This document shows positions 15,001 through 18,000 of a stretch of 64,000 bases of DNA, piece after piece. The position numbers were made by a program. Position 1 is the stretch's first letter. The number at the start of each line of letters is the position of its first letter. This stretch comes from Escherichia coli (GTDB lineage: Bacteria > Pseudomonadota > Gammaproteobacteria > Enterobacterales > Enterobacteriaceae): NCBI RefSeq assembly GCF_003334315.1, contig NZ_QOWR01000001.1; one strand, given 5' to 3'.

Positions 15001-18000
15001 AACGAACACCGCGCTGATAACTCGCCGCCGCGAAGCCGGTCAGATCGCCCACTACGCCGCCGCCAAGCGCCACCAGCGTAGTATCGCGACCATGCGGCTT
15101 TTGTAACAACGCCGTAAAGACAGTATCGAGTACAGCCAGGCTTTTATACTGCTCGCCGTCAGGGAGGATAACGCTATCGACGTTAACACCCGCCTGTTCA
15201 AGTACGCCGCGGACCTTATCGAGATACAGAGGAGCCAGGGTTTCGTTGGTGACCAACATGACCTGCTCGCCCGATTTCAGCGGTAAGAATGAAGCTGGTT
15301 CATTAAACAAACCAGATGCGATGGTAATTGGGTAACTACGTTCCCCGAGAGTAACGACAATCCTCTCCATAACGCGACATCCACCTTAATTACTGTACCC
15401 GCAGACGAGTGTATATAAAGCCAGAATTAGTTGCTTTCCAGCATGTGAATAATCTGGTTTGCAACCACTTTAGCGCTTTGATCATCAGTACGAATGGTCA
15501 CGTCGGCAATCTCTTCATACAGCGGATTGCGTTCATTGGCCAACGCTTCCAGAACTTCACGCGGCGGTGTTTCAACGTGCAGCAACGGGCGTTTTTTATC
15601 ACGCTGCGTGCGTGCAAGTTGCTTTTCGATGGTCGTTTCAAGATAAACGACAACGCCACGAGCGGAAAGACGGTTACGCGTTTCACGGGATTTCACAGAG
15701 CCGCCGCCAGTAGCCAGCACAATACCCTGTTTCTCGGTCAACTCATTGATGACCTTTTCTTCGCGATCGCGGAAGCCTTCTTCGCCTTCTAAATCGAAAA
15801 CCCAGCCCACATCAGCTCCGGTTCGTTTCTCAATCTCTTGATCGGAATCGTAAAATTCCATATTGAGTTGTTGAGCTAACTGGCGCCCAATAGTGCTTTT
15901 TCCGGCACCCATAGGCCCAACCAGAAAGATATTGCGTTTCTCTGCCATTTTTTCGGTACTACTAAGACTATTCGTTAATGATAAACCCGCTTCGCTCAGA
16001 GAGCGCCGCAGGACATGAACTGAAACCTCATAAGATATTGCGAGAGTCAGACTGAAAATTATCTCAATACTCCAGCGGGTTTGGCAACTGAATAAATCAC
16101 CCATCCCTCTGCATATCTGGTCGCTGCAAGCGCGCTGCCTTGCTACCACCGCTCTGGCGATAAATCACCGGGTAAGATTAGCGTAAAAAAGACAGCAAAA
16201 TGCCGCCTGAATGATAAATCATCATCATGGAACGCAGGCAGCGAAGAGCACCAACTCTCAAATCGGTACTCCTTGTATGCTAAATACCTGCGCGCGTCAA
16301 ATAGGTGAAACACGTTCAGCATAAAAACATTACCGCTTTTACGGCTGTTTACTCATTGGAAACCAGTCGTGGCGTGATAAACACCACTAACTCGCGTCGT
16401 TCATCTTCTTTTCCGTCATGACGAAATAATTGCCCGAACCAGGGAATGTCGCCAAGCAACGGTACGCTATCCTGACCCGATTTATTTTTACGGGTAAAAA
16501 TGCCGCCCAGCGCCAACGTTTCTCCGCTTTTGACCTCGACCTGCGTTTCGATCTCCTGCTTATCAATCGCCAGCACTTCGCCATCGGCCTGCTGTAGCAC
16601 CTGCCCCGGAACGTTCTGGCTGATGTGTAATTTCAGCCGGATGCGGCCTTTTTGTAACACCGTGGGCGTGACCTCCATCCCCAGGACGGCCTCTTTAAAT
16701 TCCACCGACGTCGCGCCACTTTCCCCGCTGGAAACCTGATATGGAATTTCGCTCCCCTGTTTAATGCTGGCAGGCTGAAGATGTGAGGCCAGCAGACGCG
16801 GACTGGCGATAATATCCAGCTGCTGTTTTTGTTCGAGCGCGGAAAGCTCAAGATCCAGCAAGCGTCCGTTGATGCGCCCAATGTTAAAACCGACATGCGT
16901 TGTCGCCGTCGCTACGGAGAGGTCGCTACCAAGCGTGGTGACTTGCCCAACGCCACCAGCGTGTTGCGCATCGGCCAGCGTCCATTTCACGCCTAACTCA
17001 CGCAAACTTTTTTCATTAATGGTGACAATATGCGCCGACAGCTCAACCTGCCCGACCGGTAGATCCATTTGCGCTACCCACTGTTCAAGCGCGCTTAACG
17101 CCGTTTTGTTATCTCGTAGCAAAAGGCGATTGGTGCGTTTATCGACGGTCATACTCCCTTTGGCACTCAGTAGCTTCTCCCCCGCTTTCGCCAGTTCTCC
17201 CGCGTCGGCGTATTGCAGGGTTATACTGCGATTTTCCAGCGGCAGATTTGCCTGCGCCCGCGCCTGCTCCGCCTCCTGGCGGGCGATATTGTTATTCTGC
17301 CAGGCAATGGAATGCACTGAGAGAATGTTGCCTTCCTGCCGCGTTATCAGTCCGGCGCTTTTCACTACAGTTTGTAGTGCCTGCTTCCAGGGAACATCTG
17401 TTAGATGTAACGACACCGTACCGCTGACGTCTGGCGACACGACCAGGTTCAACTTCTCCTGTTCAGCCAGCGCCTGCAACACCTGAGCTACCGGAACGTC
17501 ATCCACCATCAGCGTCACTTTTTGCGGCTTTGCCGCCTGTACGCCGGGTATCAGCATCAACAGTAGTGCGGCTATCCATTGCTTCATTTGTATCTCCTTG
17601 CCGTTGCCACAACCATTGTGGCGGTTCGCAGTTTGTCCCGGTACCCAGCGTTAGTACGTCTGGCGTCAGCTGTAAAATTGTCCAGCCGTTTTCCAGCACA
17701 TCGTTTTGCTGCACCCGTCGCCATTTCTTTTGCCCGTCTTTTATTACACCGATGATGCGCTCGCCTCGCCCTACCATCCCCTGATAGCGCCACTGGCTAA
17801 GTTCGCTAATCCGGCATAGATCTTCCGGCGGTTTAAAAGGGTCACGCATACCGGTTAAAAGGCACAATGCAATACCTGCCAACAACCAGCGTTTAACCCT
17901 CATGCGGCGTCTCCAGTTGTAGCGTGAACAAAAGATCATCACCTTCCACGCTTAACGAAAAACGGCTCACGCTGACGTTGCGCTCTGCCAGCCGTGTAAA

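Follow-up and report, generated by a model that had tools for sequence, protein, structure and literature searches.

The 400-bp gap between hofQ and aroK (positions 15949-16348) in a 64,000-nucleotide window of the Escherichia coli chromosome is very probably a non-coding control region of the aroK-aroB-damX-dam-rpe-gph-trpS operon, comprising two promoters, a terminator and an mRNA leader, and the open frame that extends aroK upstream appears to be a chance product of the Escherichia lineage, a stretch that happens to lack stops and yields no functional isoform. The anatomy of this region, its pattern of conservation, its mapped 3' ends and the fact that the extension frame is not conserved were all observed here or in the papers cited. 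The window is colinear with K-12 (the K-12 coordinate is the window position plus 3503116), and all features of the gap and of aroK lie on the minus strand. The seven genes have been described as one operon (PMC4981707), aroKp1 and aroKp2 occur as promoter names in EcoCyc-derived work, and Tn5 insertions in the aroK-hofQ gap of Salmonella share a phenotype with insertions in dam and damX (PMC7242855).

The limits of the gap given in the preliminary description are exact, the hofQ stop codon beginning at 16349. Its view that the gap is unusually long is fair, this being the second longest among approximately 45 gaps in the first 50 kb of the window, after yhgF-feoA (456 bp); the length is not extreme, however, as gaps of similar size occur at yhgE-pck (378 bp) and nfuA-gntT (359 bp). 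Indeed, the gap is long in all relatives examined, measuring 264-565 bp across 80 Enterobacterales loci. Just past the hofQ stop, a pattern scan finds a weak hairpin with a 5-bp stem and a T-run (16322-16345), which is a possible hofQ terminator; no Term-seq 3' end is reported there in the dataset of Adams et al. (2021). Motif searches of the gap returned no GATC, DnaA box, CRP half-site, TyrR box or Fur box, and a TrpR-like reading of TAGTCTTAGTAGTAC was rejected, with only 10 of 18 positions fitting and the spacing wrong. An Rfam 15 scan of both strands of 15400-16900, at E values up to 10, gave nothing real, its sole match being a chance hit to mir-644 (E 0.88) far under the gathering score of that family, and no RNA gene is annotated in the gap in K-12 or other RefSeq genomes.

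The annotated aroK coding sequence (15427-15948, RefSeq) starts with an ATG at 15948 and encodes 173 amino acids, which is also the length of the protein in curated RefSeq records and in the solved structure (PDB 1KAG). Profile positions 1-173 of the 173 in the NCBIfam AroK equivalog align to residues 68-240 of the long ORF, and the N-terminus begins ATGGCAGAGAAA in 80 of 80 related loci. As claimed in the preliminary description, the longest ORF containing aroK begins 201 nt, or 67 codons, upstream of this ATG, at a GTG at 16149, such that the extension occupies 15949-16149. A second in-frame start is the ATG at 16104, 52 codons before that of aroK, and no stop interrupts the upstream frame for 72 codons. 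Open stretches of this length or more arose in 2% of composition-preserving shuffles of the gap (a chance of 0.02 per gene), and with some 55 genes in the window about one such stretch is therefore expected; the length of the extension is no more than chance provides.

Comparison with relatives, which had been suggested as a check on the frame, revealed both in-frame stops and frame-shifting indels. The extension frame is open in three Escherichia loci only, and nearly all of the 77 other Enterobacterales loci have an in-frame stop 1-40 codons upstream, mostly without a start codon; furthermore, alignment of the orthologous upstream regions places indels of 2-4 nt within the extension. Between E. 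coli and E. albertii, the extension differs by seven substitutions, five of them amino-acid changing and four at codon positions 1 or 2; in aroK itself, eight of the ten differences between these species fall at third positions. The E. coli population is uninformative for the frame, as 5407 of 5426 genomes are at least 99% identical here, and the single gap indel examined among E. coli genomes lies upstream of GTG 16149.

Two blocks within the gap carry a promoter signature, since invariant hexamers flank a spacer of fixed length and variable sequence in 78-81 of 81 sequences; both are invariant even though third codon positions of aroK have diverged, with only 19 of 174 unchanged in the Enterobacterales comparison. 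The proximal block is a predicted sigma-70 promoter at 16058-16087, with a -35 hexamer TTGCCA (16087-16082), an 18-nt spacer and TG-n-GATAAT, the -10 lying at 16063-16058. It scores 10 out of 12 in the promoter scan, with the TG of an extended -10, and its TTGCCAAA and TGAGATAATTTT are invariant in all 81 sequences, between which the spacer varies in sequence with its length fixed. A conserved T-rich block, GGTGATTTATTCAG (16088-16101; alignment A1 and block analysis), adjoins the -35 upstream and is possibly an UP element. The main transcription start is predicted near 16052.

The aroK 5' leader predicted from this promoter position is about 104 nt long (15949-16053) and hardly varies among 40-67 distinct versions from Enterobacterales. 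Its hairpin SL1 (CUGA.CUCU ... AGAG..UCAG; 16020-16050) comprises eight pairs according to RNAalifold, six of them identical in 40 of 40 sequences and two changed on one side only; SL1 shows no covariation because the sequence hardly varies. A Term-seq 3' end at K-12 3519136, corresponding to window position 16020, coincides with the final paired base of SL1. This end does not depend on Rho, and with 2.68 its intrinsic-terminator score lies under the cut-off of 3 (PMC7815308). At the site of the second hairpin, SL2 (CCUGC..CGCUC-UCU-GAGCG..GCGGG; 15986-16012), every one of the 58 distinct versions forms a hairpin, with an inner stem and loop that vary in sequence and length, and with a z relative to shuffles of -1.6 on average and -2.8 in E. 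coli. The SL2 loop region aligns poorly, and support for this hairpin therefore comes from folding each version rather than from a formal covariation statistic. The A/U-rich translation start region UUUAUCAUUAACGAAUAGUCUUAGUAGUACCGAAAAA-AUG (15949-15985) is likewise conserved, almost all of its columns in alignment A2 being invariant or at least 90% conserved, and neither GGAG nor GAGG, i.e. no Shine-Dalgarno sequence, is present within 25 nt of the aroK ATG. The leader as a whole is conserved far beyond the needs of a simple unstructured start region, an excess that the control-region reading leaves unexplained. Small upstream ORFs in the leader, one of them preceded by GAGG, were rejected as candidates, since their starts are missing in Kluyvera, Superficieibacter and Pseudocitrobacter, and also in Yersinia, Serratia, Pectobacterium and Pantoea.

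The distal block (16255-16301) reads TTGACG (16300-16295), 17 nt, TACAAG (16277-16272) and then GAGTACCGATTTGAGAG. Of the 81 sequences, 78 share its TTGACG, TTAGC and TACAAGG without change, together with a 10-nt variable stretch of fixed length. When compared with sigma-70 hexamers, TTGACG matches at five of six positions and TACAAG at four of six, with a 17-nt spacing; the -10 lacks the usual, highly conserved final T, for which reason the promoter scan makes no call. The block is nevertheless probably active as a promoter, in view of an abundant E. coli 3' end downstream of it (see below) and of Yersinia RNA-seq data, where the signal rises approximately 50-fold, from a TPM of 20 for hofQ to 1006 over the block (PMC11188072). 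Its start site is predicted at about 16265-16267. Conservation of this block exceeds the promoter core, extending to the TTAGC of the spacer and to some 15 nt downstream, and it is thus conceivable that something beyond RNA polymerase reads it. The alternative sigma factors sigma-28, -32, -E, -54 and -S, compared by eye against remembered consensus sequences, did not fit.

The two promoter blocks are separated by a variable, indel-rich spacer (16105-16250). Measured from TACAAGG, the segment between them is about 190-250 nt long in Escherichia, Citrobacter and Salmonella, and 55-83 nt in Klebsiella, Enterobacter and Kosakonia. In E. coli, an intrinsic terminator is present at 16184-16242, consisting of a hairpin (16242-16202) followed by AUUUUGCUGUCUUUUUU. 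This site was also found by a pattern scan as terminator-like, and the sequence 16270-16180 folds at -28.1 kcal/mol, with a z of -2.78 relative to shuffles. A Term-seq 3' end of class 'orphan' has been mapped to K-12 3519310 on the minus strand, i.e. window position 16194, with mean reads of 58,094 and 84,035 in two growth conditions, counts comparable to what the same table lists for the 3' end of RyhB (Adams et al. 2021, PMC7815308). This end falls 8 nt after the stem, within the 7-9 nt characteristic of intrinsic terminators, and both the G+C-rich hairpin and the U-tract are in place. It implies an abundant RNA of about 70 nt; transcripts starting inside hofQ could in principle also yield this end. 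Hairpins resembling terminators also come after the distal block in Salmonella, Citrobacter and some further genera, where their positions are not homologous, whereas in Klebsiella, Enterobacter and Kosakonia there is no terminator and the block reads straight into the proximal promoter.

Might part of this sequence be translated? It is extremely unlikely that an N-terminally extended AroK, the alternative raised in the preliminary description, is made from ATG 16104 or GTG 16149. Such an isoform would account for the 72-codon open frame, and both long forms do appear in public databases as annotated proteins, having been called repeatedly by older and by automatic annotation: the ORFs from 16104 and 16149 correspond exactly to the 225-aa and 240-aa "AroK" of GenBank and metagenome gene calls, the shorter one called on at least 1000 contigs and the longer one present in Shigella flexneri, CFT073 and UTI89 records. 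However, the frame is closed outside Escherichia, the substitutions within it are mostly non-synonymous, an NCBIfam scan of the 67-aa extension gave no family match, and curated RefSeq and PDB entries have the 173-aa form. Furthermore, neither start is preceded by a Shine-Dalgarno sequence at a workable distance, and both lie upstream of the predicted proximal start site (~16052) and downstream of the mapped terminator end at 16194. A mapped transcription start downstream of the extension had been named as evidence against it; the predicted main start does lie downstream of both start codons. A literature search found no paper that treats aroK together with initiation profiling. The original view that the extension is probably non-coding promoter and leader sequence is thus borne out by the closure of the frame, the indels, the substitutions and the conservation of the promoter. 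Very unlikely, too, is a conserved microprotein encoded by the distal block, as read by Fesenko et al. (2024), who report a 23-codon Yersinia ORF in the hofQ-aroK gap (ORF.22445, MicroProt6K set, family Yersinia_78490) with a high RNA-seq signal and predicted binding to AroK (AlphaFold-Multimer ipTM+pTM 0.81; PMC11188072). In E. coli, the same frame contains a 59-codon ORF (16143-16322) that overlaps the block and is ascribed here to chance, and a string '...FD....LAYK.YRFE' is common to many genera. This string, however, reflects invariant nucleotides only: third positions are all fixed, and the changes that do occur are at second positions (E, G or V). The frame has no start codon in 13 of 77 distinct versions and only GTG or TTG in 29 of 77, a stop comes straight after LAYK in Pectobacterium, Erwinia and Pantoea, open lengths range from 16 to 150 codons, and the 59-aa product has no match in an NCBIfam scan. 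A conserved microprotein gene was accordingly rejected, since neither start nor stop nor length is conserved; moreover, should the block be a promoter, most of the ORF would lie upstream of its own transcription start.

The remaining alternatives concern RNA. It seems unlikely that the distal promoter, with its terminator, makes up a separate gene for a small RNA (~70 nt in E. coli) that acts in trans through its invariant 5' segment GUACCGAUUUGAG, or else a regulated attenuator of read-through into aroK, even though the 3' end at 16194 is abundant, 'orphan' and RyhB-like in its counts, the RNA folds well, its first 15-20 transcribed nucleotides are conserved across Enterobacterales, and terminator-like hairpins follow the block in several genera. 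Against this, neither body nor terminator is conserved, both being absent from Klebsiella, Enterobacter and Kosakonia, the register of the 5' hairpin differs between genera, the 3' tail does not resemble the U-run that Hfq typically binds, and neither an Rfam family nor an RNA gene annotation in K-12 or RefSeq genomes corresponds to it. Pairing of the distal RNA (GAGAGUYRG) with the 5' end of the leader (CUGACUCUC) is striking by eye, but was rejected, as its duplex energies do not surpass those of shuffled controls (mean z of -0.02 in 68 lineages, none under -2). It is quite unlikely that the aroK leader, instead of being a passive 5' UTR, is an element devoted to post-transcriptional control, with a protein, small RNA or metabolite as its ligand. 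Its approximately 100 nt are near-invariant where synonymous sites have diverged, both hairpins are kept in every lineage, a stable 3' end sits exactly at the foot of SL1 and a Shine-Dalgarno sequence is lacking, all of which would suit such an element. On the other hand, the whole E. coli leader folds no better than shuffles (z of +0.44), no Rfam match emerges at E values up to 10, the upstream small ORFs are not conserved, and aroK is classically considered constitutive. In addition, GcvB did not regulate an aroK fusion (PMC11878033). We consider it similarly doubtful that the ~70-nt RNA (~16267 to 16194) and the near-invariant leader together constitute an undescribed post-transcriptional layer, as a trans-acting small RNA or an attenuator; if true, this layer would govern an operon supplying shikimate kinase, Dam methylase and TrpS.

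The reading that we favour, that of an operon control region with two promoters, a terminator and a leader, would operate as follows. The strong proximal sigma-70 promoter, TTGCCA-18-TGnGATAAT, would start transcription near 16052 and produce a ~104-nt leader with its invariant 5' hairpin and second conserved hairpin, from which an A-rich ribosome-loading region without a Shine-Dalgarno sequence would lead to the annotated ATG at 15948. The distal promoter-like block, TTGACG-17-TACAAG (~16300-16272), would fire some 215 nt further upstream, and in E. coli most of its transcripts would end at the intrinsic terminator (3' end 16194), giving the ~70-nt RNA; the terminator may thereby shield the proximal promoter from upstream transcription. 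We infer the exact start sites, the promoter strengths and the roles of the leader hairpins. The 'regulatory element' that the preliminary description considered formally possible is thus real in the ordinary sense, in the shape of a conserved pair of promoters, a terminator and a leader that is both conserved and structured. Since the region controls dam, its layout of two promoters and a terminator is relevant to the way in which Dam methylase levels are set. RNA biologists may find modest leads in the unannotated short RNA and in the very conserved leader, which lacks a Shine-Dalgarno sequence.

Several features of the gap can be compared with published systems. Two of the Term-seq 3' ends that Adams et al. 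(2021) mapped in 5' regions sit in the gap: 16194 follows a canonical hairpin and U-tract, whereas 16020 lies at the foot of a 5' hairpin. Neither is named or followed up in the tables of that study, and 16194, being more than 200 nt from aroK, falls outside its 5'-UTR analysis. The microprotein family of Fesenko et al. shares its reading frame with the 59-codon ORF of E. coli and overlaps the distal block; unlike that of a protein family, the conservation of the ORF.22445 region across Enterobacterales follows a promoter pattern, and the proposed AroK-binding microprotein ORF is more likely a promoter. The 225- and 240-aa AroK forms are a typical case, with no difference, of over-long start calls produced by longest-ORF annotation, and the main value of this analysis is a clean-up, both of the many database records that hold these start-site artefacts and of the proposed microprotein. 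Finally, Lobner-Olesen, Boye and Marinus (1992, Mol Microbiol 6:1841) reportedly described two promoters, P1 and P2, ahead of aroK in the E. coli dam operon. The locus and the logic are the same here, with two promoters ahead of aroK, and the two blocks are putatively P1 and P2 (aroKp1 and aroKp2). One of the two dam-operon promoters is said to be the major, growth-rate-regulated one. The control region of the aroK/dam operon and its two-promoter layout were therefore already known in outline, and mild novelty is confined to the short RNA from the distal block and to the leader with its very strong conservation.

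A 501-nt query around the hofQ-aroK gap matched all of the 5426 complete E. coli genomes (5426/5426; 5407 at 99% identity or more), and the matches sit between genes annotated hofQ and aroK. The window is chromosomal E. coli DNA, colinear with K-12 MG1655 (K-12 coordinate = window + 3503116). On the minus strand, aroK occupies 15427-15948 and the hofQ stop codon begins at 16349, leaving a gap of 400 bp (15949-16348). The preliminary description had called this gap unusually long; indeed, it ranks second by length among ~45 gaps in the first 50 kb, and is long (264-565 bp) throughout the 80/80 related Enterobacterales loci retrieved. 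In the human-gut isolate E. coli EC09, an IS1A lies at the hofQ stop/gap junction, equivalent to window ~16349, and both promoter blocks described below are intact despite it. Upstream, the annotated hofP and hofQ genes share 89 nt on the same strand (17499-17587); the ORF list holds a longer hofP version of 147 aa.

The longest ORF through aroK does, as first described, start 67 codons upstream, at GTG 16149; the frame runs without a stop for 72 codons upstream of the aroK ATG (15948), with a second start, ATG 16104, at 52 codons. This open length is not beyond chance: 2% of gap shuffles yield an equally long open stretch, so that about one such gene is expected per window of this size. Conservation of the frame in related species, proposed as a check, was not found. 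While aroK begins ATGGCAGAGAAA in 80/80 loci, the upstream frame is open in only the three Escherichia loci of the 80. Nearly all 77 non-Escherichia loci have the frame interrupted by a stop 1-40 codons upstream (most commonly at 27, 9 or 18), usually with no start codon between it and aroK, and an alignment of twelve genera places 2-4-nt indels within the extension. Between E. coli and E. albertii, five of seven differences in the extension are amino-acid changing; in aroK itself, third positions hold 8/10 differences. Positions 1-173 of 173 of the curated AroK model correspond to residues 68-240 of the long ORF, the E. coli structure 1KAG comprises 173 residues, and a protein-family model search returned no match for the 67-residue extension. 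No ribosome-binding site stands at a workable distance before either GTG 16149 or ATG 16104. Since a 240-aa AroK form occurs in public databases (Shigella flexneri, CFT073 and UTI89 records) and at least 1000 contigs carry a 225-aa call, the extension is a start-site artefact that longest-ORF gene calling has produced repeatedly. The extension is non-coding, a chance ORF, and the N-terminally extended isoform that had been considered formally possible is not borne out by its Escherichia-only frame, its mostly non-synonymous changes, or the searches for a family match and ribosome-binding site.

Alignment of twelve genera, and then of all 81 sequences, revealed two invariant blocks in the gap, against only 19 of 174 invariant third positions in aroK. 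The proximal block (minus strand) reads GGTGATTTATTCAG-TTGCCA-(18 nt)-TGaGATAAT-TTT, with the -35 at 16087-16082 and the -10 at 16063-16058; its 18-nt spacer is fixed in length and variable in sequence, and a promoter scan returned a 10/12 sigma-70 promoter with an extended -10. Its predicted transcription start (~16052) falls downstream of GTG 16149 and ATG 16104, the two in-frame start codons of the extension. The minus-strand motif GGTGATTTAT occurs in three direct copies (16092-16101, 16160-16169 and 16214-16223), two of which flank ~58 nt (16102-16159) inside the Escherichia-specific spacer, and in Raoultella terrigena an unrelated ~125-nt insertion directly follows the same motif. These repeats and this insertion suggest that insertion or duplication has recurred at the motif upstream of the proximal -35.

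The predicted leader of ~104 nt is nearly invariant across Enterobacterales from ~16053 to the ATG. Its first hairpin, SL1 (16050-16020), has eight predicted pairs, six identical in 40/40 sequences and two changed on one side only. A Term-seq 3' end at K-12 3519136, which is not Rho-dependent and has an intrinsic-terminator score of 2.68, under the cut-off (PMC7815308), corresponds to window 16020, the last paired base of SL1, and resembles a protected end left by decay or processing. The G+C-rich second hairpin, SL2 (16012-15986), keeps its outer stem, varies in sequence and length in its inner stem and loop, and folds in 58/58 distinct versions (mean z -1.6). The final 37 nt, A/U-rich and with almost no variation, contain no Shine-Dalgarno. 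The whole E. coli leader folds no better than shuffles (z +0.44) and has no Rfam match; upstream ORFs within it were rejected as not conserved. A further Term-seq 3' end lies inside aroK, 59 nt into the gene and just past the Walker-A codons (window 15889, K-12 3519005, minus strand). It is very abundant (mean reads of 97,011 and 48,391 in two conditions) and not Rho-dependent (PMC7815308); it may mark a pause, a site of processing or a short 5' fragment.

The distal block (minus strand) comprises TTGACG (16300-16295), 10 variable nt, (A/T)TTAGC(A/T), TACAAG (16277-16272), G, and then GAGTACCGATTTGAG. With 17 nt between its hexamers and a spacer in which part of the sequence can vary, the block is promoter-like; its -10 is missing the usual final T, and conservation extends beyond core-promoter needs. 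As judged from sequence, the block is probably a promoter. In E. coli, an abundant RNA 3' end maps 70-75 nt past the block, although the upstream hof operon is not known to be appreciably expressed under laboratory conditions. In Yersinia pseudotuberculosis, RNA-seq rises from a TPM of 20 over hofQ to ~1006 over a feature covering the block (PMC11188072). Both observations point indirectly to transcription from the distal block. The 11-mer AG(T/G)AGTACCGA occurs twice on the minus strand, directly before the aroK start codon (15953-15963) and directly after the distal -10 (16263-16273), a repeat that may be coincidental because the match is weaker in Yersinia and Pantoea.

Between the distal -10 and the proximal -35 lies a lineage-specific segment. 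Measured from TACAAGG, its length is ~190-250 nt in Escherichia, Citrobacter and Salmonella; in Klebsiella, Enterobacter and Kosakonia it is 55-83 nt. The E. coli segment folds into a 5' hairpin and a terminator hairpin (16242-16202), after which comes AUUUUGCUGUCUUUUUU (-28.1 kcal/mol, z -2.78). Term-seq placed a strong 3' end, classed as 'orphan', at K-12 3519310(-), with mean reads of 58,094 and 84,035 under two growth conditions (Adams et al. 2021, PMC7815308). This end is window 16194, 8 nt past the terminator stem, which suggests that distal transcripts mostly stop there, giving an RNA of ~70 nt. Terminator-like hairpins also follow the distal block in Salmonella, Citrobacter and some other genera, at non-homologous positions, and none follows it in the short-gap genera Klebsiella, Enterobacter and Kosakonia. 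Just downstream of the mapped end, the T-run 16185-16190 is polymorphic, its length differing by one base in E. coli DETEC-P649. The 464-bp gap of Salmonella enterica subsp. arizonae carries, between the promoter blocks, a REP-like palindrome, GCCGGATG...CATCCGGC, absent from E. coli.

The distal conservation might instead reflect a coding sequence, as Fesenko et al. (PMC11188072) described a 23-codon Yersinia gap ORF as a conserved microprotein with predicted AroK binding. This ORF overlaps the distal block and shares the frame of a 59-codon E. coli ORF (16143-16322), and the few changes within the shared motif fall at second codon positions. Among 77 distinct versions, the frame is without a start codon in 13 and its open length runs from 16 to 150 codons, while the shared 'LAYK' is directly followed by stops in three genera. 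The microprotein reading was therefore rejected, as start, stop and length are not conserved; the shared peptide would be a side effect of the invariance of promoter DNA. Base pairing of the distal RNA with the leader's 5' end was likewise rejected, complementarity being no better than in shuffled controls across 68 lineages. The gap contains no GATC, DnaA, CRP, TyrR or Fur motifs.

In 1992, Lobner-Olesen et al. reportedly mapped a pair of promoters ahead of aroK, of which one is major and regulated by growth rate. The names aroKp1 and aroKp2 are in use in the literature, and a seven-gene operon has been described (PMC4981707). Furthermore, disrupting the aroK-hofQ gap of Salmonella with Tn5 gives the same survival phenotype as insertions in dam and damX (PMC7242855), which fits the gap as a promoter region for those genes. 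The invariant promoter blocks, conserved leader and non-coding extension uphold the originally preferred reading of non-coding promoter and leader for the aroK operon. In the literature consulted, we found no description of the abundant short RNA attributed to the distal block, or of the very strong conservation seen in the leader and in the first nucleotides of distal-block transcripts; these are modest leads rather than surprises, in a gap that is the already known control region of the aroK/dam operon.
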